From NCBI RefSeq assembly GCF_964204645.1, contig NC_134028.1:10230001-10294000 (forward strand): DNA of 64,000 nt, given 5' to 3'. The notes below the pieces were generated by a model. The model was not told the origin of the DNA, did no database searches, and saw only the letters and a program-made list of their open reading frames with translations. Of the stretch, positions 28,301 to 53,219 are shown in pieces. Position 1 is the first letter of the stretch, and each line of letters opens with the position of its first letter. The DNA comes from Tubulanus polymorphus. Lineage: Eukaryota; Animalia; Nemertea. Made by a program: the position numbers and the translations under genes.

Positions 28301-30026
28301 AATATCTCAATTTTAATTACTGGAAGCATTTTAACAGTAAAAATATCGACATCGAACCATTTTGATTGTCAAACTGAAGACAGGATGTTAAAAGAAAATA
28401 ACAAAGAAACTGGGTCAGTAAAACTAAAAATAAATAAGTAACATTTGGACAGATGTCATTTAATGTATACCGTACGCTGTAATTACAATATAATTAAATA
28501 TTCTAAAAAAATGTTGCCTTTTTGAAATGTGTGGGCACCATACTTAAATTATAGGCAGAAACTTCAACAAGCTTAATAATTTCTAATATTAATACCCAAA
28601 TAATCATGTCAGTTGATGTTTAAACCATTGATGCATAAATTTATATGCATAAATATGCAACCATTCAAAGTTCACTTTACCTCAATGATTACATTTGATT
28701 ATTCAAAGATTAATTCCAACTCAATTGGTATGCATTTTATATTCTAAAAAGCATTACAATACACTCCTTTAATGTGATGGAAGTGTTAAAATTCGACAAA
28801 TTCAATGAAACAGTCAACTGCTTTCAAATGTTTGCAATGATCTTTACCTTTTTTTTATGAATATTCTATAAAAAATGTGGAAGTAAACATTAAATGATCG
28901 CTCAAATGGTAAAAACCAACTGAAAATTATGCAAGTCAAGTCATGGAGGTAGGAAATGCTCAACTCGGCGAAACGAACCTCCAGTGTACTGCTCGAAACC
29001 ACATTGATTTGATAATCGACATATTCCGTCACAATAAATTACAGTAAAATCTTACAAGCCATCAGAACACAAAGGACAACCAATCACCTTTTTAAATGAT
29101 AATCACCTTAGTTCACCCACTTGCAAGTTTTCTGTCTATCTCTCAAATCAAAACTGACAGAGCATAGTCTTGGTTTAGTGGCATTTAAAAAAAAGTAATC
29201 AGCTAAGAAGTATAAATGTTGCTGGCAAAGTATCGACATTAAAACAAGACAGATGAGCATTTGCCTTCTTTTATACTGCCAAATTTAAGCCTACCTGTAA
29301 AAATATTTTCCTGGAATGAGGTCCGAGTATAAATATGAAGCTTCTATATAAATAACTTAGGTAACAGTACTAAGGTACAAAGTGCTAAAAGAAGGATTTG
29401 TTAATTTATAGTCCGTAATCGTCAACTGTGAAACATTTGCTGGTTACCTTTTGAACACGGGACATTTAAATATAAGATATAGCGCTGCAATCCCCTAAAG
29501 CATTTAGTGATAAATAATACTGGGCACTGGGCCAAACATTTCCAATTGAATACAAGAGCCCCAGACACGGTAGCTTCAAACATTATGGCCCAAAGACCTG
29601 TCTTTCAAGCAATTTCATATTCCAAATTAAGATTTAAAGGAACAGCTTAAGATAATTATGCATGATTGAAATTATATTTCTTTCAGCTGTCTAAACAGTG
29701 CAGCAAAATTTTGCGGGTGGAATTTTATTTTCGTGCACAAAGCCATTGCAATACAGCCATGCAGGGGCTGTCGACAGCTTCGCTGCTGCTAAAAATCAAA
29801 TATCAAAGTCCCAGCTCCTGATTTACTCTGAAAAACCACTGGGTAACTTCAATTAAATGCGTGATAAAGCCTAGTTTTTTTTTTTACAAATCTTCTGAAA
29901 GATGGTCCAAAATACAGCAAGCTGATAAGACATCTAAAAGACTGGTAGAAAACTGTTGTAATCTGTAAATATTTAACGAATTCGATAATTGATGTGAATA
30001 CCTATATAATTCACTACATTTCTTAC

Positions 30027-31220
30027 CTGATTATCTTCCCAGGGATAGGAATCTAATCCATAATCATACAGCAGCTCCTCATTGGCTTCTATGTTTCTAC
30101 TTGCGAAGAAACATATGACCGGTTCCCCATTTCCTTATTGCAAGACTTTTGCTCTTATGTTCCTCTCTCCTTTTATTCCATGGTTAATTAACCGTCCATA
30201 TGACCCATTTTCTGTATGAGCATCCCCACTAAATGACAAGACGTTAGGTATTCATAAATCAAATATTACATTCTATCATTTAAAAAAAACTGTAAATTGA
30301 ATACTTAAAGCACAAAAAAAACAGAATGGCACTTCAACTGCTAACTCCAACCATTACTCATTTCATTCGATGTTGTTATGTAATAAACTACATTTTATAC
30401 AAAAGATGGCGCTTCAAAGAGTTAACAGCACAATTAGTAAATACAATACATAGGCCCTACACATGACATAGTTTAGACACCTACCAGTAACCACGACCCT
30501 TGAATTTGAAACAATAACGATAGACCGAAGGATCGTTCTTCTCTCTTTCCAAGCTTTCTCTCTCATCAATCAATTCGCCCCGATACTGGAGTAGAAAAGA
30601 TTGATGCTCCTTCCTGACTGATGTTCTAACTCCACGCCCTAAAAAGACATTTAATAAGACTAACTGAACATCTGTTCATCGAGTTACAAAGATTTTTTGG
30701 TCGAGGAGCCAAGCCAAAGAATCATATGCAATGACAGGGGGCTCTGAGGGAGTTTAGATAAATATTTAAGAGGTTCAACCTAAAATATCCCGTCTGATAT
30801 TTTCCAATGAAAACTCATATACCCAGAAGCCTGGAGAATCTCTTCCTTAAACCCCTTCTACATGATTGAAAATCATAGTGAAAGTTTCAGTGAGAAGTAA
30901 CAAATATAAAATTCTTAGGCATAACTTACCTTTTCTCGGAAATTTATCAATCTAGTATCCAGGCGGATCACTTTCTGTCCATAGGATAGCTTGTTCATTC
31001 GGGGAATGGCGCTACAAATCAAAGTATAAACAATAAGAAAGGTGTATGCGCAGTAAACTGTGTCTCCGAAAGTGCAGCCATATGTCTGTGATTCTCCTCT
31101 TTTGGAGACACGTCAACTAGCTGCTAAAACCACAAAGTCTAAGTTAAAATACCATGAAAATGAAGTAGGCCTATAAAGGTGTGGTTTAAAAAAAGAATCA
31201 ATACTAACCCTGCGTTTCAT
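30027..31220 (-). pseudogene. Spliced SET-domain lysine methyltransferase gene (SETD8/KMT5A-like) with two premature stops
   Basis: Four phase-compatible GT-AG exons (31209-31220, 30930-31011, 30485-30638, 30027-30228) give MKRRRHSP...KGRGVRT...FLLQYRGELI...YCGDA...GRLINHG...FASRNIEANEELLYDYG...YPW. Confidence 0.9.
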
Positions 31221-33512: not shown

Positions 33513-33673
33513 CTTTGAAAAAAAGACATTAAACTGTATAAACTGTATAAAATAAGATTTTTTTATTTTGAACTGTGGGCCACATTACATCAAATTTTGG
33601 CTCAAATTAATTTGAAACCACTTCATGAGTATGAATATGATAAAATTTCTGATTGCAGATTATTTTGTTCAGG

Positions 33674-33766
33674 AGTAATTGGAAGATGTGGGTTTCAGAT
33701 CAGAGGGCGAGAGGGCGAAACACCACTCATCACCACAAGTAATTTTTTTCCCTAATAAATGGGGGA
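33674..33766 (+). repeat. Polinton left TIR (includes the PolB start codon)
   Basis: Reverse complement matches 53140-53219 and 2785-2874. Confidence 0.9.
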
Positions 33767-36700
33767 GAATGAACACCAACCAGAAAACAATAATGTTAAT
33801 AAAAATCAATATTATTGCCAATATTGTAAAAAATACATCGATACATCTCATAAAACACGACACGAAAAAACTGCAAATCATATAAAAAATGTAATAGATT
33901 TTGAAACTCCAGAAAATTCCAATGAAAGAAAAGAAAGATTAGAAAATATGAATGTGGATGAAATAAAATGTGAAGTTTGTAATGAATTTATAGTAAAAAG
34001 GAATTATAATAGACATCTCGAATCACAAAAACATTATAAAAATTTAAATAAAAATGTTTTAGGATCAGAATATTTTGATGATAAACCTCAACAAGTAAAA
34101 AAATCAACTTCAAAAACTAAATCCATTTCAAATAAACCTTACATGGAAAATGTTAGAAATTATATTGATTCACTAGAAATAAAAGATACAATTGAAATTT
34201 TAGAAACATACATAGTAAAATTGGTCCTGCAGCTATTATATTTAGATTTTTTAAAGGTACAAAAATAGAAGATTATAGTAAATTTAATGAAATAATAGAA
34301 AAAATACTAGATTTGATAACAGATGTTGAATATCCAAAAATTAGTATCTCTGGGAAAGTAAGTTTAATAAAGTCAGAAGAAAAAATGAATTATAATATTC
34401 AAACACACTCTGAAGAAATAATTTCAAAAACACAAATAAAAGAGAAGTTAGAAAGAATATTTAATGAATTTAAACGTCATATTGAAGAAAGGTATTTTGA
34501 GGGTTCTGGCTTAACATTGAATGAAATTATATATTTAGATTTAAATGTTTATAATACAAAAAGAAATAAAACATCAAAAAGTAATAAAATGTTTAAAAAT
34601 GATTCAAACTTTACAACAGAAAAGGATATTAAAGCATCATCTTATATTAAATTACCATTTACAACAAAAGCAATAATAAATATTCAAAATGAAGATAATA
34701 AATGTTTTCTATGGTCAACTATTAGTTGCTTACATCCAACACAGGAAAATGTTTGTAGAATAACAGATTATCGGAAATATGAAACATTATATAAAATTGA
34801 TCAATATCCAGTAACTATAAAAATGATACCCAAAATAGAAAAAATTAATAATTTAAAAATAAATGTATTCGAATTAATGCAATTACCAAAGACAAAAGTT
34901 GAAAATATTAAAGATTATACATTGGAAGCTTTATATTTAACAGAATATTATGATGATGAAAATGCTATAGATTTGTTATATTATAAAAAAGATAAAAATT
35001 AACATTATATGTGGTTAAAACAAATTGATTTATTCTTTAGAACAGAAAGTGATCATCATCGTAAAATTTATCTAGGTAGAAAATGTTTATCTAAATTTAT
35101 GACTGAGAATACATTATTAAAACATAAAGAATTATGTGATAATAAAGATTTTTGTAAATTAATAATGCCAACAGAAAAAGATTATAAATTGAAATTTACT
35201 AATCATAAATTTAAGAATATTGTTCCATTTGTAATTTATGGGGATTTTGAATCGATGAATAAAGAATTAACTGATCAAGATAGAAAAGAAATATATAACA
35301 AAAAGCAATTATTAAAATCAATGGATAAAGGAAATGAATTAAATGAAGACACAATACAAGACTCACCAATTATAAATACAATTAAAAAAGTTCATCAAAG
35401 AGCTGCTGCTTATGGAATTTATATAAAATCAAATTATCCTGAATTATATGAAAGTCAATATATTTCTTTTAGAGATGAAAATGTAGTTAATGATTTTTGT
35501 GATAAATTGATTGAATAAGAAAGTGATTTTGCAAAATTATTAAACAAAAATAAAAGAATAGTTATGACAAAAGAAGATGAAATTGATTTTAATTATGCAA
35601 CTCATTGTTGTTATTGTGAAAAACATTTTTATTCATTTGATAAAAGAGTTAGAGATCATGATCATTTGAATGGAAAGTTTAGAGGCGCCGCGCATGAAGA
35701 TTGTAATTTACAAGCTAACAAAGTAAATTTCGTTCCAATATTATTTCATAATTTATCAGGCTATGATACCCATCTATTTATAAAACAATTATCGGGAAAA
35801 TTGGGCGCAATTAATCAAGAAATAGAAGAATATAATGCTATGAATGAAGCAAATGTAAGAAAATATGATTTTAAACTATTAGCTAAAACATCTGAAAATT
35901 ATATTTCATTTCAATTTGGTTGCATTAGATTTTTAGATTCTTATAGATTTCTAGCAAGTTCATTAGATAATTTATCAAAAAGTTTAGTTGATAATGATTT
36001 TGTTATAACTCGATATTATTATCCAAATGAACAAGATTTTAGATTATTGAGATATAAAGGCGCAATTCCTTATTCATTTTATAAAACACACAATGATTTT
36101 AATGTAACAGAATTATTAAAAGATCAATTTTATGATCAATTAAAAGAGGAGTATGTGAAAGACGAAGTTTTTAATAGAACATTAAATATTTGGAACCATT
36201 TTAATATGAAAAATCATGGCGAATTAGTTGATTTATATTTAAAATCAGATGTTATGATATTGGCTGACATATTTGAAAAATTTAGAGAAGTTAATTTGAA
36301 TCATTTTAATGTTGATCCTTGTTATTGCTACTCTAGTCCTGGTTTAACCTGGCAATGTGGTTTAAAATATACAAATGTAGAATTAGATTTATTAAAAGAA
36401 CCAGATATGGTTTTATTATTTGAAAAATCAATTAGAGGTGGAATTAGTGGTGTTATGGAAGATAGATATTTTAAAGCAAATGATGAATATAAATTATTAT
36501 ATATTGACGCCAATAATTTATATGGTTGGGCAATGATGCAACCTCAACCATACGAAAATTTTATATTAACAGAAGTTGAAAGTGATGATAAAACTAATTG
36601 GGAAAGCGCAATTATGAGTTTGGAAGATGAAGCACCAATTGGTTATTTCTTTGTAGTTGATTTAGAATATCCTGAAAATATAAAGTTTAAAACAAGAAAC

Positions 36701-38814
36701 TTACCTTACTGCCCAGAACATTTAACTGTAGATGATAGTTATTTAAGTGAATACCAGAAGAAAATAAAACCGAAAGATCATGTTTTTACAGAAAAATTAA
36801 TACTTACTCAAAATAATAAACACAATTATATTGTTCATTATAGAATGTTAAAATTTTATCTAAAACAAGGAATGAAATTAAAGAAAGTACATAGATATAT
36901 TGAATTTAATCAATCGAAGTGGTTAGAAAAATATATAGATTTCAATACTCAACAGAGAACCATATCAAAAACAGATTTCGAAAAAGATTTTTTTAAAGTA
37001 ATGAACAATAGTTTTTATGGTAAAACATGTGAAAATATTAGAAATAGAAATGATATTGAATTAGTAAATAATTCTGAACGATTAAGACATTTACAATCAA
37101 GTCCTAGACATTTGGGAAATAAAAGATTTGAAGATTATTTAACAGCAGTTAAATTAAAAAGAACGTCAACGAAATTTAATAAACCTATATTCATTGGTTC
37201 AACTGTTTTAGAAGTATCAAAATTATTAATGTATGATTTTTATTATAATGTTTTACAACCACTTTTTGGGGAAAAGCAAATCAAAATATTATATTTTGAT
37301 TCTGTTACAGCTGACACCCCAATATTATTAAAATGTAATGATAAAATATTGATAAGAAGAATTTCAGAAATAATTCCACAACAAAATGAATGTTATATTT
37401 CACATGGTGAAAAAGAATTAATACAAATAAATGGATTAATGGATGTTTGGACAAGAAATGGATGGAAAAAATTAAAGAATATTATTAGACATAAAACAAA
37501 TAAGAAAATCTATAGAGTTAGAACTAAATTAGGATTTGTAGATGTTACAGAAGATCATAGTTTAATTAAACGAAATGGCGATGAAATAAAACCAACTGAT
37601 ATAAAAATTGGAGATGAATTATTACATAAAAGATTTTTCCAAAGAATGAATCATATGTCATTTGATGAAATAATTGATAATATTTATAATATAGAACCCG
37701 AAACATTAGAAGAAAAAGAATATTTTATCAAAGGATTTTTCATGGGAGATGGTTCAGCAGGTGTGTATAATTATGTTAATCGCACTCAACATTGCTGGTA
37801 TTTATGCAATCAAGATTTGAAATTATTAGAAAGAATAAAGAAATTCTGTGAAGAAGTTTATCCAAATAAAACATTTAAAATCATGGATGTTATGAAATCA
37901 ACAGCAGTTTATAGAATACTTGTAAATAATCCTAAAGATTTTGCTATAAAATATAATGATGAATTCTATATTCATGCAATAGTTAAAAGTAATACTTCAA
38001 CAAAAGAAAAGATAGTTCCAGATTATGTATTAAATGCAAAAAATAATTTAAGAAAATGGTTCTTCATTGGATTCTATGCTGCAGATGGTTCAAAAAGTTT
38101 CAAAAACCGCAAAACAATATCTTTAGCTCAAAAAGGAAAAGTTGCTATATCAGGATTGAATATATTATGCAGTTCATTAGGATTTAATATGAATATTGGA
38201 TTGATTAAATCTAAACCAAATTGCTTTAATTTAAGCCATGTAGAAAATGAGTTAACAGAAGAAGTTTAAGATTTATTTGAAATATATAACCCAACTGACT
38301 ATGTTTATGATTTATCAACAGATGATGGAACATTCAATTCTGGGTTCCCATTAATCCAAAAAAATACCGACGCCTACATACTAAAAATCAAGACAAATGA
38401 CATAACAAAAGATTTAAAAACATTAAAACATCATTTTGATTTTAGCAATTATCCCAAAGATCATGAACTATTTAGCAATGATAATAAAAAGATTCCTGGT
38501 AAATTTAAAGATGAATTAGGGGGTGATGAAATGATTGAATTTGTTGGGATAAGAAGTAAAATGTATAGTCATAGAACAAAAGATCATGAAGCTAAAAAGT
38601 TAAAAGGAATAACAAAACATGTGGTTGATAAACATTTCAAGATTATATAAAGTGTTTATATAAATCAATTTTAATGAAACATAAAATGAATTGTTTAAGA
38701 TCAGAAGATCACGAGATGTACATTAATGAAGTTGAAAAAACTAGTTTGAATCCATTTGATGATAAAAGGCATATTTTAGATGATGGTATAAAAACATTAC
38801 CTTATGGTTATTAA
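33759..38814 (+). pseudogene. polB: Protein-primed family B DNA polymerase with N-terminal zinc fingers, an endonuclease-VII-like insert and an intein
   Basis: YGDFES (ExoI), VRDHDHLNGKFRGAAH (EndoVII-like), FHNLSGYD (ExoII), YLKSDV (ExoIII), YIDANNLYG (motif A), KVMNNSFYGK (motif B), split YFD/TDA (motif C), PGKFKDE, KLKGI and TLPYGY*. In-frame stops at 35000, 35516 and 38267; frameshifts near 34230 and 38650. Confidence 0.96.
37301..38365 (+). mobile_element. Intein (355 codons) with LAGLIDADG homing endonuclease in PolB motif C
   Basis: Block A SVTADTPILLK; block B DVTEDHSL (TxxH); LAGLIDADG-like FIKGFFMGDGS and FFIGFYAADGS; block F YVYDLSTDDGTF; C-terminus LIQKN then Thr+1. Excision restores YFDTDA. 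One in-frame TAA at 38267. Confidence 0.95.
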
Positions 38815-40090
38815 AACATAAAATCAATATCATCATACTCGAAATCACTACTGGCTTCTTCATTTTCATTTAATTGTTCTTGTATAATTTGTTTAGGTTC
38901 TTCCATTTTATTTTTCTCATTTAAATAAAGTTCTATCTTGTACCACATTTCATCTCGCTCTCTTTGTTTCTTATTGTTTGTTAATTCGTAAAATGGAATT
39001 ATAATATCGATGTTCAAATAATTTACAATCTTATTTAAAAAGAATTCATAATTAATTGAATCTGTTATTCTATTTTCCAAATGATACATTAATATTTGTT
39101 TGAATATTTTTTTTACATTTTCCATATCTTTTTCTGTTAATTTAGGTTTTTCATAATAATCGTTAAATAATAAATATAAATACATTTTCTTTTGTTTTGT
39201 GTTAAATGTTGATGGAATAATTGTTTTTATAATATCTTTTTTAGTTATTTCACCATTTTTATTTTCTATTATTTTCATTTTTTCAAGCCATTGCATATAT
39301 TCTGGTGTATGATCTTCTATAGAAAATATTTTAAAAATTTCATCTAGATATCTAGATACCTAGATCCACATTCATTACAAAATAACACAGTACCTTCTTG
39401 TCTTAAGGTCGCATAACTACATTGTGGACATTTTCGTTTATAATTTATTGGTAATAGATCTTCATTAAGCTCTTGGTATTTTCTTACGTTTTCTTTATGT
39501 TTTATTGTTCTTTTATGTAGATTTGAATTACTTGTTGTAATAATCAATTTACAATATTTACAATAATATGTTTTTCTTGTTAATTCATTATATTGTTTTT
39601 CTAACTTTTCAACTGTTTCTTTATTATCTGGTTACGTTTTCTCATATTTTATTTTTTCTAATATATTATTTTTTCTTTCATTGAATTCAGTTTCAAATTT
39701 ATTAGAAATTTTATCTATATGTACTTTACGGAATTGATGATTCTCCCAATCTTCTATATTCTCGGGGCTATATTTTATTCGACAAGGCTCACAGAAATGA
39801 TCTTTTATACTATCCTTATCATAGAATAAGAAAGGTCTTTTCCAAATAATTTCAGGTTCAACTTAAACAGAATTACTATTACTTTCATTACTATCAACAT
39901 TAGCCGTTGCGCCATTAATTTTACACTTCTCTGAATGTTTTTTAACATAATTTCTTGAGAATAATTTATTACATTTTGGGCAGTTTAGTTTAGGGGGTTT
40001 ATAATTTTCATCATGTTTTTTCATATGTCTAGCCATATTACTTTTTCTTAGAAGTTCACCACAAATTTCACATGCTATCTTCTCATCCAT
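38811..40090 (-). pseudogene. Multi-zinc-finger protein fused to a VLTF3-like (poxvirus A2-like) late transcription factor domain
   Basis: ORFs 39863-40090 and 39344-39547 share one frame across in-frame stops (several CxxC/H fingers, then CPQC..CNECG). After a frameshift, 38811-39296 reads INYEFFLNKIVNYLN...ELTNNKKQRERDEMWYKI, resembling the VLTF3 C-terminal pattern. Confidence 0.72.
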
Positions 40091-40158
40091 TTATTAAGGA
40101 AAAATTTTATTAGAATTAATTTCTAGTGATGAGCGGTAATTTGTTTATGTTATAAATA

Positions 40159-40917
40159 ATGGTAGAATTAATAGAATACAATATATTTGTTGATTCTAGA
40201 AAACTTACAAATAATAAATCACATAATTTACTAGTTCAATTAGATAGAGAATTTAAGAATTGTGTTGATTCAAAATTAGTAAATATAAGTTTATGTAATT
40301 CTTTTTATAATATATCGGATAAAACTTTCGAACAAAGAGGTTTTGCAATTCATATGAGAAATAAAAATAAATGGTTTTATCTAATGTTAAAACCAAGATT
40401 ATATAATTTAGAAACATTAGCCCAAGAAATTAATCAGAAAGCACGATTAAAACTTGAAAGTGAAGATAAATTTTCAATTAGATTTATAAAAAGTGATAGT
40501 TCTGATAAAATTAATATAAATTTAGATGATGAAAGCAAACATGCATTTATGGTAAGGAAACCTTTAGCTAAACTGTTAGGAATTAAACCACAAACTGTTA
40601 CAGGAAACGTAGACGGTAATTCAAATATAATACATTTTACACATTTTTATATGTATTGTAATTTAATTGATCCTACAAAAACATTCGAAGCAACTAAAGA
40701 TATAACTTGTAATTCTGGTTTACTAAACATTTTACCATTGAAGAATGTTAAACAATTTGGAACGCAAATAAATTATAATTTAGCTGAATGTGATTTTAAA
40801 CCTTGCATTCCACATTTCAATAATCTTAAATTAGAAATTAGAAATCATAATGGTTATTTAATTGATTTGAATAATTTTCCTGTGATATATGAATTAGTTA
40901 TAAGATTTAGAGAGTAA
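40159..40917 (+). CDS. Minor capsid protein (penton)
   Basis: Intact 252 aa with IFVDS, SFYNI, YMYCNLI, LLNILP and LKLEIRNHNGYLIDL..VIYELVIRF, the pattern of Polinton pentons. Confidence 0.8.
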   Translation: MVELIEYNIFVDSRKLTNNKSHNLLVQLDREFKNCVDSKLVNISLCNSFYNISDKTFEQRGFAIHMRNKNKWFYLMLKPRLYNLETLAQEINQKARLKLESEDKFSIRFIKSDSSDKININLDDESKHAFMVRKPLAKLLGIKPQTVTGNVDGNSNIIHFTHFYMYCNLIDPTKTFEATKDITCNSGLLNILPLKNVKQFGTQINYNLAECDFKPCIPHFNNLKLEIRNHNGYLIDLNNFPVIYELVIRFRE

Positions 40918-40933
40918 TTTTTTCATTATATAA

Positions 40934-41287
40934 ATGAATATAACTGTTGGACCGAGTATATGTTTTGGATTTGATTTTAAACGTGAGAAAGAAATGAAAT
41001 TTAACATTAATGATGTAATTACACAAATCAAAAATATTGCATTTTCTAATGAAACAACATTTAAGTATGAAAAAACAATAGATAAAGAAACTTTTAATGT
41101 AGAAAAGATAACTAATTTAATTAGAGAATCTTTAAGATTTTATGAATTAGATGAAGATTTTATCATCGATGATATTAAAAAAATAATAATTGAAATATAT
41201 ACAAATAAAACTAGTAATGAAATAAATGTTGAATTAATCATATATAAGATAACTAAATATTTTGAAGATAGTAATTTTTTTGATTAA
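40934..41287 (+). CDS. Polinton hypothetical protein
   Basis: 117-aa ORF with TATAAATG start; homologous remnant at 63553-63810. Confidence 0.7.
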   Translation: MNITVGPSICFGFDFKREKEMKFNINDVITQIKNIAFSNETTFKYEKTIDKETFNVEKITNLIRESLRFYELDEDFIIDDIKKIIIEIYTNKTSNEINVELIIYKITKYFEDSNFFD

Positions 41288-41290
41288 TAA

Positions 41291-41512
41291 ATGAGTGATA
41301 ATAAGTGGATAATAACTGGATGATATAATGATGCCTTACTATCAGTTGGAACTGTTGGTTATTCAATGGTATTAAAAAAAGGATTTAAAATGGGAAGTGT
41401 TAATGTTGATAGATTTGATATCAATGATATCTTAAAATTAACATTAGCAGTTACTTTATCTAATTTAACTATTGATTATTTGGAAAAACAAAAATATATT
41501 CCTCCCATATAA
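41291..41512 (+). pseudogene. Small hydrophobic Polinton protein (73 aa, one TGA), absent from the ORF track
   Basis: TAAATG start; MSDNKWIITG*YNDALLSVGTVGYSMVLKK...KLTLAVTLSNLTIDYLEKQKYIPPI; conserved at 63361-63551. Confidence 0.7.
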
Positions 41513-41536
41513 ATGCATAATTATTTTACTAAATAA

Positions 41537-41959
41537 ATGGCTTCTGCAGTTATAACGATTATAGGATCGGCAATTGTAAACGCTTTAGCATTTACTGGTG
41601 GTGGTTATTTATTTAAACATATTGATAAAAATGGTTCATTAACAGAACAAGAAAGACATAACTTAGCATTAGAGAAATACAATAAAGCAGCAGAAGAATA
41701 CAGAGAAAAGAGGCAAAACTATATGGATTATATTAACAAGGAATTATATGATCAGAAGATTTCACATAGAGATTTTCAATCAGTTGATGATGCAATGAGT
41801 TTATATAACGCAGTAAGCAATAAAGAAAAATTACATCTACATAAACCTAAATTATCAGATTATTATACCCCGAGTAAAGAACAACAGAAATATGAAATAA
41901 TGTGGATTTTAGGTGGAACAGTTGTTGTTATATTTGTAGCATATAAATTTACTAATTAG
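41537..41959 (+). CDS. Polinton membrane protein (hydrophobic N-terminus, coiled coil, C-terminal TM)
   Basis: 140-aa ORF, also intact in copy 3 (62911-63336). Confidence 0.82.
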   Translation: MASAVITIIGSAIVNALAFTGGGYLFKHIDKNGSLTEQERHNLALEKYNKAAEEYREKRQNYMDYINKELYDQKISHRDFQSVDDAMSLYNAVSNKEKLHLHKPKLSDYYTPSKEQQKYEIMWILGGTVVVIFVAYKFTN

Positions 41960-41978
41960 TAATTTTTTTTCTAAATAA

Positions 41979-42413
41979 ATGGAAGATAAAGTTGATAGTA
42001 TTGATATTATTCCTCATGATATAAATAAAACTAAATTAAAAATATATTTCGAAAAACAAATATTAGAATTCGAAAATGATTTAAAAGTTAAAAAGAAAAA
42101 ATATTTAAAAAGTAAAATTATATATTATTTGATTATTAGTGGTTCGGTTACAATTAGTTCTGTAATAACATTTCTAGCAATATTCAGTCCATTAACACCT
42201 TTAGCTATATCAATTGGTGTATTAGGATTAAGTTCAAGTGTTTTAACTGGTATAAGTTCAAAATTAAATATAAAAAGTAATAAAGAAAAAATTAAAACTA
42301 ATATAAAAGAAATTAATAAATTAAAAAATACACTAGATTACATTATAAGTTTAAATGGTCATATAACAGTTGAAGAACAAGATAAATTATTAAAAGAATT
42401 AATAAATTATTAA
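41979..42413 (+). CDS. Polinton two-TM membrane protein
   Basis: 144 aa with two adjacent hydrophobic helices; homolog at 62550-62894. Confidence 0.8.
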   Translation: MEDKVDSIDIIPHDINKTKLKIYFEKQILEFENDLKVKKKKYLKSKIIYYLIISGSVTISSVITFLAIFSPLTPLAISIGVLGLSSSVLTGISSKLNIKSNKEKIKTNIKEINKLKNTLDYIISLNGHITVEEQDKLLKELINY

Positions 42414-42429
42414 TTTTTTAATTATATAA

Positions 42430-45400
42430 ATGGCAGATAGTTTTCCAAAAGCTTTCCAATATAATAAATCAACTAAATATAATATTCCTGCAATAGATTT
42501 TAATAAAGATATTACATATAGAAATGAAGTTTTAAATTCATTAATTGATTTATATATTTATGTTACTGAAAGTAATAATTTTCATGTAAAGATGGAAAAT
42601 ATATTTCATGTGTATACAATGGTTATTAAAATCTAATATGAAGTATTGGCAGAACCAATTAAATTTTGCTGTTTATGGCGCAACAACAGGATGTGGAATT
42701 AGTTGGAATGGTCATTTAAACAAACCAAGTTTACCATTGATGTTATCACTTTTTAGATTTCATACATATTTTCAAATAAAATTAATATTAGATGAATTAG
42801 AATGTCCTTTACCAGGTTCAAAATATTTTAAAGAATTGAATAATAATATTAATTCTTCTAAGTTTTATAAAATATGTAATGAATTTAATATTAATTCAAA
42901 TAAAGATTTTAGAGCAAAAATTGGAACAATGGGTGGATTAGGAATATTATATACTAAAGAATTTGGAAAAATAATGACAAATTCAGATATAAGAACACTA
43001 AATTGGAATGAATTACCAAAATATTATAATAATATACAACAACAAAACAATAATGGTTGGGTTAATTTCATTTTAGAAAATAGTGAAGTTTTTACTAAAG
43101 CTGGAATACAAAGAATAAATCAATCTATTAGAACTTATTTAATTTGTATTTTAGGTGCGCAAGTGAAAGGCTGAATCCAAGAACATGTCTATCTCACTTT
43201 TGAGCCCAAACGTCTACTTTTACTTAGTAGCCACTTGAGAACAATAAGCAATTAACGATATCAGCTACTTTTCCAGTAGTATACATTTCAAAACAGTCAC
43301 TCTGGAATAGTATTCCTTTCAATTCGGTTGGTTTTCTATAGTGGCTGTTTCGAAGAGTCTACTATTGAAAAGTGACCATTTTGAAACATCTGGTTTCGAT
43401 AGTGCACACTAGCAGTAGAGGTGACTGTAAAACCACCCGCCTGTTAACAGTGACTTTGTGATAGTAACTCCTACCATAGCAGCTACTCTCAAAACACATC
43501 GTTTCTAAAAGTCAACTATTGAAAAGTGACCATTTTGAGATCGCTTGCCAGATTCCCTGTTATAAATACACTGTAGCAACATATGCTTCAGATTTGCAGT
43601 GATACGTGACAATATAAACATACTGAGAAACTCTACTCACGCTATAGTTTGGGGTATAGTTCTATTAAAGAGTGACTCAGTTGAGATCTGAAGATATTGT
43701 AGATACTATCTTTCAGGATGTGAAATGTAATGAGCGATTCCCAACTCTCAATTGGATTTAAATTTGTTTACAAATTGTCAATAGTTATGTAGTTTTAAGA
43801 TAAATCAAAATTTCCTTCTTTTCATGGCGATGTAATTGAATAAAGAATTCAATTTGAACAAATGCAGCTATTTTCAAGCATAGGTCTGCATTTCTTTTTG
43901 ATTTAAATTCTTAGATTAAAAGCGCAAAAATTCAGGTTAACCTCTCATTATTGAAATGGTGGTTTATCTTCAACGGGGGCCTGGATGTCTTTGCATCTTA
44001 AATTAAGATGTTCATTTTGGAGTGTTTGAATTTCCCTGAATTCTAATTTTGCGAAATCATTGATTTTTTTCAAACAAAATATGCTATACCCATGTGGATT
44101 TTTAACATTCTAAAGAAATCATCTAAATTGTGCCCATATTTGATCGAATTTAATAGAAGAAACTGTATGGTATTCAAGATTTCATTTGGATTACGGTAAC
44201 GGCCTTTGGTGATCGTCCCTGGGGTCATGAATGAAGAAATCCCGTAATAAAATTTTAAATATGATAAAATTTGTTAAGGTGAAACCGCAACGTTTTGACT
44301 GTAGACTAACAGCCATCATCAGGGGGAATGTAGACATTCTAGTGATAAGGGCTTTTAGTAAGATGGCTGTCAGACAACAGCTGAAACGTTGTGGTTTAAC
44401 TATAATAAATTTCATGATACAAAATTCTATTGTGAAATTTCTTCATTTGTCTACAGTTAACACGCTTTAGAGTATTTTATTCAACTTCTTCGGGTCCTGT
44501 AGCCGTTTAGATCGAGAATTATTTACTAATCGGCAAAGAAGGGATATAAAACCGTGTTGGTCGCTATGAGAGGGATTCTCTGTATATCTGCACCTTAAAC
44601 CGGTACCTTTGTTAGTTCTAGCCCACATTCGCTTCCAAATTCAAGTATTGGTAACGTTGGTTTACGATAATTTGAGAAAAAGAGTTTAGTTGGAGAAAAC
44701 TGATAATTCAGTTAATGAGTTAACTGATAATCTTATAATTCAGCGATCATTGGTTCATCGATTCAGCGAAGTTCAAACACCGTACATTTTGGCATGTTAT
44801 TGTATTGGCACCTTGAAATAAAGTTTCATAGAGATATTGCGGTGCTAAGTTTATCAATATTAAGAGGTAATTACTTTTGGTTTGTGGTCTTTTGGTGGCA
44901 AATGCAGTTTGTTCATTCGTTCATCAATCACTGTCTAGTTAGCCAGTGTAATTGACCTGCTGACCGATAGCTGCTGCTGAGTTTTTGATAACCTATATAA
45001 ACAATTTACTCAACAAAGTGGGAAAGTATGTGAAACTAGATTTACAGCATATTGCATTTCTTTCACATCTTAAGCCAAAAGAAGTTTTCTCTATCAAATG
45101 AAATTGCTGACTTCAAAATTACGTGAACATCTCAACACTGCACTTTTATACGCTAATCGTTTGATCTTTTATAATAAGTTGGTAATTTCATTTCAACCAA
45201 ACTGTATAACTACGAAATAAGATTTTGATTATGGTATCATTTCTAGCAAGCGATAAAATGATTCAATATTCATTAACGAACAAGCAGAGAACAGCGTGAC
45301 AAAGTGAACATCACATGGATTATTCAAAAATCGTTTGTATCGAAATAAACAATTAATTCAAGGTTAATTCTAAGTATTTTAGATACATTTTTTTTCGTAA

Positions 45401-46776
45401 TTCAATTTTTGAACATATGATTTTATTTGTATATTCCTCTCTCATATACCCTTAAAAACAAATTAAGCCTAAAAGACAAATTTATTTTTTTGTCTTATCT
45501 TTCTTTTCTACAAAATCAAAGATTTATGAACGCACCAGAATGTTTTATAATCGCAAATGTAAAGAATTCTAGGACTGGCACTATATTTTAGTATTAATGG
45601 ATTTAATCCATGATGATGTTATATGAATGAATAGTTTTCCATTTTGTTGAGCGTAATATAATTTAGGGGATTCTTAGCATCTCAAAAACTTTGATTTTCT
45701 GTTCACAGAACTGTATTCAAAGCATACAGAGTTCTGTACACAAAGCATATAGGGTTTAACAGTACCTTTAAACCTGTCACGTATCACTGCAAACCTTTAA
45801 CAGATGCTGCTATTTTGAACAGGAAATAACCATGCCATCTCAAAATGGTCACTTTTCAATAGTTGACTTTTAGAAACGATGTGTTTTGAGAGTAGCTGCT
45901 ATGGTAGGAGTTACTATCACTAAGTCACTGTTAACAGGCGAGTGGTTTTACAGTCACCTCTACTGCTAGTGTGCACTGTCGAAACCAGATGTTTCAAAAT
46001 GGTCACTTTTCAATAGTAGACTCTTAGAAACAGCCACTATAGAAAACCAACTAAATTGAAAAGAATACTATTTCAGAGTGACTGTTTTGAAATGTATACT
46101 ACTGGAAAAGTAGCTGATATCGTTAATTGCTTATTGTTCTCAAGTGGCTACTAAGTAAAAGTAGACGTTTGGGCTCAAAAGTGAGATAGACATGTTCTTG
46201 GATTCAGCCTTTCAAGTTGAAACAAGATCCCCAATAATTGGAAATGATAACACTTCATTCGATGCGCAGAAACAATTCAAAGTATTATTTGAAGATTCAA
46301 TTCATAATGATAAAAATAGATCGATTCCAGAAAACATTGTAAGATATCAAAATTATTTAGATAAATCACATATTAGATTAAATTATTGTATAGTCCCTAA
46401 TCTATTAATTATTTCTAATGGTTTAGTATTAAAGATGGGAAACATAATTGGTTATAATAATCTAATTAAAACTGCACCAATAAATAATTCATTTGGATTA
46501 AATGATATAAATAAAAAGATTATCACTGCTCCAAAATTAATGGAAGGTGAAAAAAATAAAAAACATATTCAATCAACAGAAACTAAAACTAAGAATATTA
46601 AATTAAATAATGATTCTAAAATAAAAGATTACAATACTACAGAAAATATTAAAACTGATAATATTCAACATGATATAATTAAAACTGATAATGATAATAA
46701 ATTCCATGAAAATACTAAATTAGCTTTAACTTGTATAGGAATTGTTATAGGAGGAATATTATATTTAAAATTTTAA
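42430..46776 (+). pseudogene. Conserved Polinton protein (~430 aa, C-terminal TM) split by a transposon
   Basis: 42430-43164 joined to 46218-46776 reconstructs the copy-3 gene 61155-62444 (ILGAQV|ETRSPII). Confidence 0.88.
43165..46213. mobile_element. Non-autonomous DNA transposon, 3049 bp, ~370-450-bp TIRs, 4-bp TSD (possibly Sola-like)
   Basis: Termini GAAAGGCTGAATCC / GGATTCAGCCTTTC; TSD AAGT (43161-43164 / 46214-46217), confirmed by the empty site in copy 3; no transposase ORF. Confidence 0.9.
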
Positions 46777-46792
46777 TTTTTTTATTATATAA

Positions 46793-47546
46793 ATGGATGT
46801 AGAAGGTGGAGAAGATATTGGAATCCAATTGAAAAACTTTTACCGAATGGATTAATTGATGCAACAGATCAAGAATTAGAAGATTTAGATATATTTTCTG
46901 ATAAAGCAATTAGAGAAATTGAAAGTATAAGACATGCATCTGATAAAATTGCGCATGATAAAAGTATAAGAGATTTTAAAATTAGAACTTTAGAAAAAGA
47001 ATTAACTGATAAAAATAAAGAAATAGAACAATTCAAGTCTGATTTAGATCATATGATTATAATATTAATAGATTAAAAGTTATTTTTAAAGATTTATTGA
47101 TAAAACCAAATTCTGAAATATCGTTAAAAGATAGAATAAAGTTATTATTTAAATTAGAAGGAATAACAATTCTTTCAATTCTAACAGCTGTTACTATGTT
47201 ATTTACAACAATTGGTTTAGCAATATCAAATTCTTTGAAATCTTCTCCTATTCCCAATAAACCGGATAAACCCCCGAATGATAATAATTCTATACAAGAT
47301 AAAGTTAAAGATGGGTTAAAGAAATTAGCAAAATATTTATGGGAACTATCTAAAAAATCTGCTGCAGCTTTACCAGGAATTATTGCATCAATTGTTGGTT
47401 TTATATTGAAATCTGCAGGTAATATTCTTAACTTTGCTGCTGAACATATTATTTTATTTTTAATTACAGTTGTAAGTGCTATTATTTTTGGGTTAGTGAA
47501 TATGATATCAAAAAGATATCAAGAAAAAATAATAAAAAATAAATAA
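46793..47546 (+). pseudogene. Polinton coiled-coil, multi-TM protein, internally deleted in this copy
   Basis: TAAATG start MDVEGGEDIG joins directly to sequence found ~600 bp further into the copy-3 gene; C-terminal hydrophobic helices in ORF 47097-47546. Confidence 0.8.
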
Positions 47547-47566
47547 TTAATTTTTTTGTTAAATAA

Positions 47567-48827
47567 ATTAGTGGGAGTTATATAAGTCCTTCTAAGATTT
47601 CTAGAATATCTAATGCTATTAAAGCAGAAAGATCACATCATATAATTACACATAATCCTTCAAATATTAATCCCGATGAAACTTTATATGTAAGAATTCC
47701 TAGATTAACACAAAATACTTTTTATGTTCCAAATAGTATTTATTTATCAGCTGATATAAAGATATAAAAGTAATTGGTCATGATAATAATTATGTTGTTG
47801 ATAATGTTGGGAGATATTTGATTAAAAAATTAACTATAAAGAAAGATTGGTCCAGAAACAGTTTTCTCATTCGATGATTATAATTTATTTATGCATCATA
47901 AAGATTTATGGTTAACTAAAGGAAATAGAAATAATATGATATTTCAGGGTATTCAATCGGAAAACCATAATAAATTAAGATCTGAAGCCAATAATGGAGT
48001 AGTAACTAGTGCCGCAGATAATTTGATAAAAAAGATTTATGGAAGCAAATATAAAATTCCATTAGACTTTGAATTGATAAATAATAATGCACCTTTATAT
48101 AAATATGTAATTCAAGAACATATTATATTTGAGATAACATTTGCTCCTGTAAATGAAATTGTATTATCTTGCGTTGTTAAAGATATGGGTTATAAATTAT
48201 CAAATATATGTTTAGAATATGACACAGTAACTAATGAAAATATTGCTAGCACAATTCAAACTCAATACAATCAAGGATTTTCATTATTATATGATTATAT
48301 TGATAAATTTAAAACTGTAACTATTAATGCAAATGATGAAATAATTAATGAGAATATTAACTTCCCAAGAAGATCTATTAAAGGTATATTAATATTTTTT
48401 ACCATTGCAACATATTCTAATGGTGCAATAAAGGTAGATAATTATTATAATCCTGAAATAACAAAAGTAGAAATAACTATCGAAGGAATAGCAAATAAAA
48501 TATTTTGTCAAGGAATGAGAATGATAGATCAATGGCCAGAAATTAGAAAACATTTTATGAATGAAAAAAGTAAAATCATTTGAAAATTGTAATATTAATC
48601 AAATTGATTATTATACCGGCAATAAATATGCATTATGGTTAGATTTTAGAACAACAGAGGATAATTCATTACATGGTTCTGGGAAAAAACTACAGAACAC
48701 TAAGGATGGAATACAATTATTCATGAAAAAGAAAAAAAGAAGCTTAAATTTTAAAATGCATATTTATATTATATCTGACGCACAATTAAATATTGTAAAT
48801 TCACAATTAGATAGTATTCAATATTAG
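47567..48827 (+). pseudogene. Major capsid protein (double jelly-roll), start codon mutated and frameshifted
   Basis: Homolog of the 415-codon copy-3 gene; size, beta-rich character and position before integrase and ATPase fit an MCP. Confidence 0.75.
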
Positions 48828-48857
48828 AAATATAAAGTTAAAATTAACGATGTATAA

Positions 48858-49985
48858 ATGGGTGGTAAAAAAACTCCTAATACTAAAGAACAATATTTAA
48901 GAAATTTATATTACAACCCTGAGAGTTCGGTTGCTTATTCTTCTACCAAAAATATATGGCGTCAAGTAAAACAAGATAAATTAGATAAGATAATCCCACA
49001 AAATTTAGTTAAATATAAAGATATAAATGAATTTATGTTAGAACAACCAACATACACAACACATAAAAAAATTGTTAGAAAATATAAAACTCGTAAAACT
49101 ATGGTAAGTTATGTAGATCAACAGTGGCAAGGAGATTTAATTGATATGAAAAATGTTAAGAAAGATAATAATGATTATTGGTGGTTATTGAATATAATTG
49201 ATATTTTTAGTCGTTATGTATGGAGTTTCCCACTTTATAGAAAAGATGCTGTACAAACATCAAATGTTTTAAGAAAATTTCTTTCGGATGATAAACTAAA
49301 ACCAGAAAAAATACAATTTGATGACGGAAAAGAGTTTGATAATTCACTTGTTCATGAACTCTTAGATAATCATAATATTAAATATTTTTCAACAAAATCG
49401 GATAAGAAAGCAGCAGTTGTTGAACGATTTAATAGAACATTAAGAACAAGAATGTGGAAATATTTTACAGCAAATAATACTTTTAAATGGATTGATGTTT
49501 TAGCAAAATTGATAGAAGGATATAATAATTCTTATCATTCTTCTATTGGAATGAAACCTATTGATGCTAGAAAACCTGAAAATGCTGAAATTGTTTGGAA
49601 TAATTTATATGGAGCATTTCTTGTAGGTGATTTTGGTGAACCTAAATTTAAAGTTGGTCAAAATGTTAGAATTTCTAAGTATAAAAAGATATTTGACAAG
49701 GGATACGATATAAATTTTACTACAGAAATATATAAAATAAAAAAGGTAATAACAACAAAACCATATGTCTATAAATTAGAAGATTTAGATGGTGAAGAAG
49801 TTGATGGCTACTTTTACGAAGAAGAATTAAGTTTAACTACAGAAAATCTAGAACAAGAATATAAAATTGAAAAAGTATTAAAAACAAAAACTATAAATAG
49901 AAAAAAATATTCTTTAGTAAAATGGGTTGGATGACCAGATAAATTCAATGAATGGATATTGTCAAGTAAAATTAAAAATATATAA
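48858..49985 (+). pseudogene. Retroviral-type (rve) integrase with C-terminal chromodomain; TGA at 49932 truncates the chromodomain
   Basis: WQGDLIDM, IDIFSRY, IQFDDGKEF, VVERFNRTL, YHSSIGMKP and YKIEKVLK...LVKWVG. Confidence 0.95.
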
Positions 49986-50594
49986 ATGAATAAGGAATTA
50001 TTTATATTTGAACCTCATAATATGTTAATTTCTGGCGTAACAAATTGTGGAAAAACTTATTTTATATTAAATTTATTAGAAACTGTTTATGAAAACTATT
50101 TTGATAATATAGTATTATTTTGTCCAACATATGAATTTAATCAAACTTATGATAGAAATATTACTAGAAATAATAAATTTATTATATTAGATCCTAAAAC
50201 AGTAAAAGAAAATTTAGATAATTGTATAAAAATAGCAATTGATATTTATAAAGGATCAAATACATTATTTATCATAGATGATTGCGCAAATTTACATGAT
50301 TCAAACGTTAGAGAAAGTGAGTTATGCTATTTAGCTTTTTCTGGCAGATATTTTGGGATAACAACTTGGGTTTTAAATCAAAAATATAATTCAATTGTTA
50401 ATGACTTTAGAGAAAACATTAGATTTCTAGTTTTATTCTACAATAAAGATAGAAAATCGATGAAAAATGCGCTTGAAGAAAATGATATTATTCCGCATGA
50501 TTTACATAATGAATATATGGATAAGTTGAAAAATATTAAAAGATCAAAATTACTATTTAGATTACAACACCCATTTAAATATGAATTTATTTAA
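49986..50594 (+). CDS. A32/FtsK-like genome packaging ATPase
   Basis: Walker A GVTNCGKT, Walker B FIIDDC, and the GR.FGIT..LNQ motif. Confidence 0.92.
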   Translation: MNKELFIFEPHNMLISGVTNCGKTYFILNLLETVYENYFDNIVLFCPTYEFNQTYDRNITRNNKFIILDPKTVKENLDNCIKIAIDIYKGSNTLFIIDDCANLHDSNVRESELCYLAFSGRYFGITTWVLNQKYNSIVNDFRENIRFLVLFYNKDRKSMKNALEENDIIPHDLHNEYMDKLKNIKRSKLLFRLQHPFKYEFI

Positions 50595-50595
50595 A

Positions 50596-50870
50596 TTCAA
50601 CTAGCTTGTTAATCTATTACATATTTAGTTACATTCTAGTTGAATTCTAGTTATTAGTAGTTGGAACAAAAATCAACTAGATTTGACAATATTTTAACTA
50701 GCTTGTTAATCTAGTATATTTTTAGTTACATTCTAGTTGAATTCTAGTTATTACTAGTTGGAACAAAAATCAACTAGATTTAACAAGAAATAAATAAAAA
50801 CAGCAATATTTCAACTAGCTTGTTAATCTAGTTGAATTCTAGTTGCATTCTAGTTGAATTCTAGTTGCAA
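50596..50870. repeat. CTAG-rich short-period direct and inverted repeat block
   Basis: Repeated ~11-bp ctagttgaatt / ctagttacatt units with inverted aactag units; also at 1-130 and 55280-55463. Confidence 0.9.
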
Positions 50871-50898
50871 CAACACAACTAATTTATTTGTTATATAC

Positions 50899-51504
50899 AT
50901 GGGAGGTGAAAAGAAAATAAAATCTAAAAATGGTGATGTTCCAATTGAAAAAACTTTAGATGATTGAGGAATAACAGAAACAAAATTAACTCCAGATGAT
51001 GGTGCTTTAAATAATGTTACAACAAATAATAATTATGAATATTATCTTTATTGTAAACATCAATTAGAAATATTAATAGCATCTGGAAAATGGAAAAATT
51101 TTGTCGGTAAAAATTTAACTTATAATGAATTAGATACAATGAAATCAGAAGAAATTATTGGATTATTTAAGATTTATGGAGCCGCGAGAACAGCTAGAAT
51201 TAATGACGCGATATCAGAAAATGTAGTAAAAGGTTATAGTAAATTATGTAATTATATACTACCAATTGAAGATGAAAATAGATTATATTCCGATTTAAAA
51301 AATGATTATTTAGTTATGACTGAATTAAATAAATGGATTGGATATTTATCATTTCAATTAGGTGGATTTATGACATTATTATCAACTGGAGTTATAATAT
51401 TTTCAAATATTGAAAGTAAAAATATTTCTATAATAAATGAACAAGGTGGAAGAAGTGAAGGAATTAACTGTGAAGAAAAAACCGAGATCACAGAAACAAA
51501 TTGA
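50899..51504 (+). pseudogene. Conserved Polinton ~200-aa protein with an in-frame TGA near 50965
   Basis: Matches the intact ORF 54667-55257. Confidence 0.85.
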
Positions 51505-51803
51505 ATGGTCTCGGCAATTAGGAATTAAATCACAAGAATATGAAAAAGCTGTAAAAGAAAAAATAAGTAATAAAAATGTTAATAAAAATAGTGAAAATAT
51601 TGTTATTTCTACTCCTTCTAATGATAGAATATTTGATAAATGTCTATATTTTACGGTTGGATTTGTAATTGTATTCATTTTGATTGGTTGTAATTGGTAT
51701 AAGAAATCAAATAAGTTCATTATATTAATAATTCTGAAACAACTGCTATCAAAAATGAAAATACTTCTGAAATTCCAAAATTGATAATAAAAAAAATGGA
51801 TTA
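51437..51803 (+). pseudogene. Small TM protein, frameshifted near the C-terminus
   Basis: Homolog of 699-1055. Confidence 0.75.
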
Positions 51804-52819
51804 ATATTTTAGAAAAAAAACAAAAAAATAAATGAATATCTCACTACTTTTGTCTATCTATGCGAAGCAATTAAATTGTCCAGATAAGCCATTTCGGATT
51901 CTAGATATTCATTATATTTATTAATTTATCTTGTTTTTTTAATTTGAAGATTTTACTTGAATATTGTATTACAGTCGTTTCTTATTATTAGTTTTTTCTT
52001 AAATTGAAAGATGACAGCACTGGGTGTGATGCTAAAATGAATATTTGAATTTGAATTTGAATTTGTTAATCAATTGACATGGTAATTGATTACTAATTTG
52101 ATTTAAAATTATATCATAATTAAGTTAAAAATTCATAATTCATTTATCAGTTTTCATTCCTATATTCTTTTATTCGGAATAATTTATAATTTCAAATTTC
52201 ACATATTTCTTTAGTAAACACCAACAACATTTACTTAGGTGTTTTAGCTAAGTATATAAGGCAATTCATTCCAACGCTGGAGTAGCTCTGGCCAGCAGAG
52301 GCATTTTGAAAATGCACCTTCGTCCACTCTCCGGGTTTCTCCTTCGGTTTCGAATTTCGAGATTGGTAGAAATTACATTAGGCGCCTTTAATATAATGTG
52401 ATTTCTGCCAATCATTGAAGGAGATCCCGGTTGACGTGGGTCGCGGGGGTGTAAGTAGAAATGACGGGGGAAAAGCGTCCCGTGGCGACTTTCAATAATG
52501 GGATGCTTATCCCCTGAAAACTCTGTAGGTCGAGGATAGGGCAATTTTGCTAAAACTTACCTTAAAAACACCGAAATATTCCTTTTAATCACGAGAGAGA
52601 ATGTATCCTGTGTGTGTTGTATGTACTGCGTGCTTATTATATAACTGCTAGCTATCCAACATAACAACAACGTTGAATTGCAACACCTGTTTGATCGATC
52701 AATATTCAAATGAAGCACTCTCTTATAATAACATGTAACAGATGTTTGACTGGTATGATTGTAGTTGTTCGTAAAACGACTAAGGTCATTTTTAGATATT
52801 CATTATTTTTATTTTTTAT

Positions 52820-53145
52820 TTAATCAACAATTTCTAAATCATGATGACCGTCTTCATTTTTCTCATGATAGATTATTTTAAATCCTTCTAAATCTTTTAA
52901 TTCCTCTGTACTCAATGAAACCCATTTATCAGGTAAAAACACTTTAAATTCTCGCGATGTACTAACATTACAGTAGCTTAAATTCGCTGATACTTTCTCT
53001 CCATATTTAGTTTTTATCTTTTCTAATTTCAATATTTTATGTTCAATTTCTTTTGTAACATCAATTAACTTTTTTATTTCAAATTGTTTTTTGCTGGTTT
53101 TATTCTGTTATTTATTGTTGCTAAGAATGCTTTTCTATCTCCCAT
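52820..53145 (-). pseudogene. Terminal 108-aa protein, frameshifted
   Basis: Homolog of 2119-2445; ATG at 53145 lies within the right TIR. Confidence 0.8.
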
Positions 53146-53219
53146 TTATTAGGAAAAAAAATTACTTGTGGTAATGAGTGTTGTCTCGACCTCTCGACCT
53201 CTGATCTTTTCCAATTACT
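53140..53219 (-). repeat. Polinton right TIR
   Basis: Reverse complement of 33674-33766, with a short deletion near the tip. Confidence 0.9.

Follow-up and report, generated by a model that had tools for sequence, protein, structure and literature searches.

The described inteins closest to the one reported here sit in polymerases of viruses and of integrated viral DNA. In the passages cited here, Green 2018 states that metazoan genomes lack inteins and counts 67 inteins of viral DNA polymerases (PMC5784728), while Gallot-Lavallee 2023 reports endogenous giant-virus polymerase inteins in Klebsormidium, Tetrabaena and Hondaea as well as nuclear inteins in Anaeramoeba (PMC10710043). An intein of Chilo iridescent virus is mentioned in the cited part of PMC549080. 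The protein-primed family B DNA polymerases (pPolBs) of Polintons have been described as carrying HNH and VSR nuclease domains (passages in Jeong 2023, PMC10748475; Krupovic 2024, PMC11161782), and one sentence of the latter paper raises the possibility that pPolB nuclease domains result from intein invasions. Here we analyse a 64,000-nucleotide stretch of DNA (contig NC_134028.1, positions 10,230,001 to 10,294,000 of the forward strand; hereafter the window, with coordinates counted from its first letter), in which an intein interrupts the catalytic motif C of a Polinton pPolB. The reading we favour, and hold to be probable as a whole, is that a pol-c LAGLIDADG intein lies in a decayed Polinton pPolB of a likely animal genome and is one of a family that probably spreads by homing.

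A class-1 intein in motif C of a Polinton polymerase

The insert occupies 37301..38365 (+), 355 codons that encode a Hint splicing domain with a nested two-motif LAGLIDADG endonuclease and contain one TAA. It is preceded by the Asp codon GAT (37298-37300), opens with Ser1 at 37301, closes with the terminal Asn at 38363-38365 and is followed by Thr+1 at 38366. The set of class-1 residues is complete (S1, T83/H86, D337, N355, T+1). Within the N-terminal splicing region (37301..37630, +), which begins with Ser1, residues 2-88 match the intein N-terminus model TIGR01445 at 29.7 bits, above its cut-off of 24.5, and T83 and H86 of the T83-x-x-H86 motif (37547-37558, +) are invariant in 49 aligned rows. 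LAGLIDADG motifs 1 and 2 lie at 37727..37753 and 38063..38089 (both +); read from the sequence, their helices end in D150-G151 and D262-G263 with the acidic residue kept in both, and the first corresponds to a helix at residues 136-150 of the structural model. PF14528 (LAGLIDADG_3) spans residues 252-299 at 32 bits, above its cut-off of 22.5. The C-terminal blocks F and G (38300..38365, +) contain D337 and K354-N355, and relatives have the same termini; no NCBIfam model of intein C-termini matched the intein translation. The in-frame TAA (38267..38269, +) falls between the endonuclease and block F and was read as X.

An AlphaFold model of the intein, built on a 49-row alignment, reached a pLDDT of 91.5 and a pTM of 0.91. 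Its best structural match by Foldseek is PI-PkoII (2cw7, E 2e-17), and the other matches include the TliVMA/PhoVMA inteins, PI-PfuI, PI-SceI and I-DmoI. When the exteins were aligned as separate pieces with the intein-free polymerase P0205 (P and L numbers are our handles for proteins and loci), the N-extein ended at residue 1162 and the C-extein started at residue 1163, with identities of 69% and 83%, respectively. The same adjacency was seen in six of the seven relatives tried; the alignment with the remaining one, P0142, ended short of the junction. We thereby confirmed that 37301-38365 is a true class-1 LAGLIDADG intein in PolB motif C. Its Asp/Thr insertion in motif C and its closest similarity to other pol-c inteins assign it to the pol-c allele type, and the insert is predicted to self-splice and to cut DNA. 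An artefact or chance motif was considered and rejected, as were a hedgehog-type Hint domain (an endonuclease is present, as are a C-extein and Asn/Thr termini) and a self-splicing intron (the insert is in frame and has protein-splicing motifs at both ends). GC and GC3 are 0.254/0.141 for the intein versus 0.246/0.130 for the N-extein, and given this likeness there is no compositional sign of a recent arrival in this lineage.

The interrupted pPolB gene (33759..38814, +; PF03175, E 2.8e-20) encodes an N-terminal zinc finger, an endonuclease VII-like motif and the exo/pol region; the endonuclease VII-like motif lies upstream in the polymerase and is additional to the intein. Comparison by tblastn with P0205 and P0002 identified five lesions, namely frameshifts at ~34211 and ~38635 and TAA codons at 35000, 35516 and 38267. 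As written, this copy could not yield the protein, and we class it as a pseudogene. In raw DNA reads from the matching species (here and below, figures come from 12% of one run), the ~38635 lesion is absent from 157 of 237 reads and hence is particular to some copies.

A preliminary description, made from the letters of the window, had placed an intein in motif C of a Polinton pPolB at exactly these coordinates. The fold and the profiles agree with it, both TIGR01445 and PF14528 exceeding their cut-offs on the read-through translation, and the joined exteins align through motif C as it had supposed, residues 1162 and 1163 of P0205 being adjacent. It had also blamed a single TAA for hiding the C-terminus: the intein indeed has one stop, but the gene has five lesions.

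Relatives of the intein

The 322 intein residues before the stop, used as a query, retrieved 307 long proteins, of which the best 120 were considered; a near-length intein search gave 34 proteins, and 2062 matches (best 150 considered) came from a set of 1.84 billion representatives. Intein extraction also drew on 117 intein-bearing loci. Among the best 120 of the 307 proteins, the closest intein relatives are Polinton PolBs with intein identities of 46-62%: P0002 stands at 62% and P0003 at 50%, and P0004, P0006 and P0007 are also among the best matches. The P0003 cluster has 136 members on contigs of up to 1 Mb, and that of P0007 has 121. We extracted at least 344 complete inteins, 318 from RNA-primed PolBs, 14 from pPolBs (the window included), 5 from topoisomerase II, 2 from ADP-ribosylglycohydrolase and 5 unassigned, counts that include cluster members and duplicates and rely on extein classes assigned by BLAST to our own reference pieces. 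Another 18 of 109 incomplete inteins are in pPolBs. The inteins of P0002, P0003, P0004, P0006 and P0139 are without interruption, and both LAGLIDADG motifs retain the catalytic Asp in 8/8 Polinton inteins listed.

Ser1/Thr+1 are found in 293/318 RNA-primed-PolB inteins. The penultimate residue of the window intein is Lys (K354) and not the usual His, which is not obligatory. The preliminary description had remarked on this Lys; it is present as stated, but is not unusual, occurring in 121/318 RNA-primed-PolB inteins (His in 138/318) and in 5/14 Polinton inteins. Since Lys is frequent among relatives, we regard it as a family variant.

Six pPolB inteins form one side of a 100/100 branch in a 62-row tree that comprises these six, the 48 most similar of 246 de-duplicated others and 8 chosen rows; they also group together at 100/99 in a 24-row tree under a mixture model. 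The nearest non-Polinton inteins by BLAST are 41-44% identical and include those of giant-virus metagenome-assembled genome (MAG) contigs in IMG/VR (L081), in agreement with the pol-c site and the giant-virus-type affinity first proposed for the insert. The proposed transfer from a giant virus to a Polinton stands as to the closest relatives, which are giant-viral, but not as to direction: the intein trees have no root, and their Polinton branch lies near the midpoint. Mean path lengths are 1.9 for giant-virus inteins versus 1.15 for Polinton inteins. Because the giant-virus inteins are more numerous and more spread, we infer a giant-virus donor, and giant-virus PolB inteins are the most likely source of the family. 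By extein classification, none of the 117 intein-bearing loci is a pPolB case; PolB and capsid patterns confirmed no Polinton-type relative in IMG/VR, and a phage collection gave 2 weak matches of ~26%.

Members of the family were also seen outside PolB, in topoisomerase II (P0005, P0085, P0091, P0347) and ADP-ribosylglycohydrolase (P0030/P0170). The non-PolB insertion sites are mostly Asp/Thr-Asp and motif-C-like (DQD|TDG, GGD|TDT), and P0005 has two inteins; such look-alike sites suggest non-allelic homing. P0090, named Chloropicon primus DNA polymerase delta, has a family intein (32%) at YGD|TDS that groups with the PolB inteins of P0084/P0109, which we take, as a guess, to be prasinovirus-like or algal-virus-like PolBs. 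The P0172 cluster (55 members, 15 listed) consists of 362-365-aa open reading frames (ORFs) that are almost wholly intein. All 5 listed members that reach the intein start open at a Met ~10 residues before it, 10 of the 11 listed members that reach the end stop 4-7 residues past the Asn, and the +2 Asp is often changed. P0172 possibly represents a free-standing intein/endonuclease subfamily.

Intein-plus and intein-minus alleles

Of the 136-member P0003 cluster, 15 members were considered and 14 of these aligned, a 129-aa fragment being omitted. Thirteen of the aligned members reach the insertion site, 7 as intein-plus and 6 as intein-free alleles, and their N-exteins are 94.6-99.9% identical (most 99%). 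Ten fixed differences separate the two groups, all located between residues -7 and +44 relative to the insertion, and none was found in the other 1131 columns; this interval was picked post hoc, and no p-value is given. Intein-plus alleles share one common flanking tract, and their inteins are 95-99.7% identical. The alignment pattern identifies the tract beside the insertion as a probable co-conversion footprint. Three distal sites vary in both the plus and the minus group, hence the insert is present on more than one background.

Intein distribution among polymerases is patchy. Among long pPolBs, the 120 nearest (the best 120 of 5562) include just 4 with the intein. In a 30-row extein tree with 13 intein-bearing rows and intein-free rows thinned at 72% identity, intein presence needs 9 changes, 7 of them forced by starred branches; 170/500 shuffles are as low as 9. 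The intein of P0006 is 44-47% identical to other Polinton inteins, whereas BLAST of its exteins against four window-type PolBs gave nothing below E 0.006, and its polymerase has a VSR-like motif where the window type has the endonuclease VII-like motif. This contrast between intein and extein identity implies that the intein has crossed between two polymerase types.

Reads of the matching species also contain both states. Depth averages 208 on the intein versus 396 on the N-extein, and 15 + 29 = 44 reads skip the intein at its two ends and represent intein-free junctions. For an assumed genome of 0.2-2 Gb, depth implies about 20-200 intein copies. Nearly identical elements are found both with the insert and without it, which makes spread by homing likely. 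Intein-free P0130, P0128 and P0131-P0135 vary at the site (YTD|CDS, YFD|TDA, YGD|TDA), and YMDCDS occurs in 26 of the 120 nearest pPolBs; such variants are possibly homing-resistant alleles.

The preliminary description had treated the intein as a one-off, which understates a family that is found across Polintons with homing footprints. The intein-plus and intein-minus alleles that it envisaged are present in the P0003 cluster (7/6) and in the DNA reads, and the comparison of intein and extein trees that it outlined sets one intein branch beside an extein tree with 9 changes.

Proposed mechanism of spread and alternative explanations

The conserved residues suggest the following cycle. In uninterrupted members, Ser1, TxxH, the block-F Asp, the terminal Asn and Thr+1 would excise the insert from the precursor, and splicing would rejoin the Asp-Thr-Asp of motif C. 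Because splicing re-forms the catalytic motif, the polymerase would work only if splicing works, and the insert would be protected from loss. The endonuclease, once freed, may then cleave the empty motif C of a further Polinton copy in that nucleus; if the break were repaired on an intein-bearing template, the intein would be copied across together with a short flank (in one cluster, ~7 upstream and ~44 downstream codons). Tens to hundreds of Polinton copies per genome could supply both donors and empty targets. An extended version of this scenario, to which we give slightly less than an even chance, is that a giant-virus-derived intein is now homing among animal germ-line Polintons, has crossed between two unalignable pPolB classes via just the few conserved codons of motif C and, in one lineage, has turned into a free-standing intein gene outside any polymerase frame (the 55-member cluster of ~365-aa ORFs).

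Several observations pull in the other direction. The match to PF14890 (Intein_splicing) has an E-value of 7.4e-6 but scores 26.3 bits, below the 35.8 cut-off, and the window copy bears its five lesions. In a FastTree analysis of 252 rows the six pPolB inteins stay together with weak local support and with a long-branch row attached, and an approximately unbiased (AU) test does not reject a position of P0006 outside the other five (p 0.171). The intein-plus P0139 and intein-minus P0142 differ at 4/746 columns, none of them near the site, so that this pair is without a flanking tract. The intein/extein depth ratio is rough because extein depth includes diverged subfamilies, and protein clusters cannot place plus and minus alleles in one genome.

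Homing might instead occur solely between co-infecting free virus genomes, the integrated copies being passive snapshots amplified by replication and integration. We lean against this alternative, yet regard it as a serious possibility. A single conversion followed by amplification would also fit the one tract and the near-identical inteins of the P0003 plus alleles, and the cross-type jump seen with P0006 needs co-infection. The three distal polymorphisms that segregate in plus and minus P0003 alleles argue for more than one transfer or for recombination, and the coexistence of plus and minus alleles in the reads of one species also speaks against this alternative.

The host of the intein-bearing Polinton is quite probably an animal. 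The genome had been called apparently animal in the preliminary description, and circumstantial support for this holds, but no host gene was identified within the 64-kb window, which counts against it. The four best-matching read runs carry one species label, and an independent 2026 whole-genome shotgun run of that species covers the stretch deeply. The flanks contain a piggyBac and a long interspersed nuclear element (LINE) with endonuclease and reverse transcriptase (RT). We take the mix of piggyBac, LINE, Academ-like and SET8-like sequences (the last two recognised by eye) to be of marine-invertebrate type. Among the 120 nearest pPolBs, the sole eukaryote-named relative is P0317 of the coral Stylophora (36%), which matches in its PolB as well as its integrase. 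In the Atlas, the neighbours of P0003 are for the most part arthropod/mollusc clusters with scores <0.9, and serve as a lead only.

It is unlikely, in our view, that the intein and its homing are real but reside in a protist, a symbiont or a co-assembled organism, in which case there would be no exception to metazoan absence. Besides the lack of a host gene in 64 kb, the nearest pPolBs sit on 5-10 kb environmental contigs, which also weighs against an animal, and four relatives sit in bacterial MAG bins. Passages in the literature describe Polintons as abundant in Metamonada and Oomycota (PMC10748475) and report that nuclear scaffolds of algae and of a labyrinthulid carry viral polymerases with inteins (PMC10710043). 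The species label of the reads, the transposons of the flanks and the coral relative favour an animal host over these alternatives. As to the bacterial bins, L118-L121 are short Polinton-type pPolB contigs in GTDB bacterial MAG records, without an intein match, L120 also having an integrase; they are probably mis-binned eukaryotic DNA. One pPolB relative is labelled Sulfurimonas, and is probably mis-binned.

Finally, it is very improbable that the intein is an old passenger from a Polinton ancestor, repeatedly lost by precise deletion and with an inactive endonuclease: the single branch of Polinton inteins and the similar intein and extein identities within the window type (62% versus 58% for P0002) would suit it, but loss would be required in 116/120 nearest relatives, there is no explanation for an intein of 47% identity in a polymerase that cannot be aligned, and the local tract of fixed differences and the kept catalytic aspartates are left unaccounted for.

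The Polinton copy and its surroundings

The Polinton copy with the intein spans 33674..53219 (+), 19.5 kb including a nested 3-kb insertion, and has AGT...ACT termini with weak terminal inverted repeats. The terminal inverted match pairs 33660-33766 with 53138-53233 (107 nt, 78.5%); no 6-bp target-site duplication was found, as the flanking 6-mers do not match. Other genes include a retroviral-type integrase (48858..49934, +; PF00665, E 2e-10), an A32-like packaging ATPase (49986..50594, +; PF04665, E 7e-12) and a VLTF3-like gene (38811..39359, -; PF04947, E 1.4e-5). A putative major capsid gene, frameshifted, was located by tblastn at 47696..48824 (+); its sister copy at 57232-58350(-) has an open frame with a weak Pfam Capsid_N match (E 0.0046), and a single-sequence fold of the putative capsid gave a pLDDT of 28. 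No maturation protease was found among the window ORFs scanned, several of which are unassigned or broken. By its pPolB, retroviral-type integrase and packaging ATPase, we classify the element as a Polinton/Maverick. Two further partial Polinton copies of the same family, at 1-2874 and ~53650-64000 (-), have long matches of 88-96% identity; the intein is carried in an integrated element, as the preliminary description had held, and this element is multi-copy.

The three Polinton copies form a local cluster, the third lying tail-to-tail with the intein-bearing one. A 3-kb element at 43164-46214 with ~470-nt terminal inverted repeats (92%) splits a Polinton gene (42590-43174 / 46165-46776) that is intact in the sister copy. 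A LINE with ORF1, endonuclease and RT lies at 19500-25950 (-), and a piece of it (20.6-21.6 kb) is inserted into the third Polinton copy at 58.8-59.8 kb. The window also contains a decayed piggyBac transposase (PF13843) at 3731-5496 (-) and a large element at 7400-15400 with inverted arms at 7812-8360 / 14403-14953, which we presume to be Academ-like from its HEEADT motif. A tandem array at 25916-28314 consists of 7-8 copies of ~410-nt units, mostly 93-98% alike, with an extra copy at 19508. A SET8/KMT5A-like fragment at 30484-30675 (-), possibly a host or transposon exon, is not significant (E 0.14). An Rfam scan of the window gave 0 matches.

Implications and comparison with described systems

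If the host is an animal, the family would be an exception to the metazoan absence of inteins, with an integrating virus as the entry route. Were the extended scenario true, it would be the first endonuclease-bearing true intein family resident in metazoan nuclear DNA. Inteins were reportedly described in invertebrate iridoviruses by Bigot in 2013; given such inteins, animal-infecting viruses that carry them are not new. The occurrence of many donor and empty alleles together would amount to a natural homing experiment, rare for inteins, with measurable conversion tracts, and makes the homing cycle in Polinton inteins directly testable. Inteins common to Polintons and giant viruses would record past contact in the same cells. 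How pol-c inteins cross distant polymerases, a question raised in the cited part of Ogata 2005 (PMC549080), becomes testable as well.

The kind of element, a pol-c LAGLIDADG intein, is known; for its host class, protein-primed PolB, we found no report, and its footprints of homing are unusually clear. The literature searched, with Repbase, InBase, subscription journals and supplements outside its scope, yielded no intein described in a protein-primed polymerase, whether of Polintons or of other origin. The word 'intein' has 0 occurrences in the available texts of Jeong 2023 (PMC10748475) and of a coral polintovirus paper (PMC11131425). In PMC10748475 and PMC11161782, the passages on pPolBs speak of nuclease domains and mention neither a splicing domain nor LAGLIDADG, whereas the window PolB has a true intein. 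Adintoviruses/Polintons as described in Starrett 2021 (PMC8502044), in the available text of which inteins have 0 mentions, resemble the element in the window in their PolB, integrase, ATPase, putative capsid, terminal repeats and decayed integrated copies. Like the present case, those in the main text of PMC10710043 involve viral polymerase inteins, nuclear scaffolds and virus-mediated spread; their hosts, however, are algae and protists, and that main text is without the words polinton, maverick, metazoa or animal.

Giant-virus (Nucleocytoviricota) PolB inteins L081, L082 and L085, at 41-44% identity, have the same termini and site, but the Polinton inteins branch apart from them. The Mimivirus PolB intein, in its published description (passages in PMC549080), is also located in motif C (YGD|TDS versus YFD|TDA in the window), shares Ser1, the terminal Asn, Thr+1, TxxH and LAGLIDADG, and is of similar length (351 versus 355 aa). 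The Mimivirus enzyme is RNA-primed, whereas the polymerase in the window is protein-primed, integrated and multi-copy in a cellular genome.

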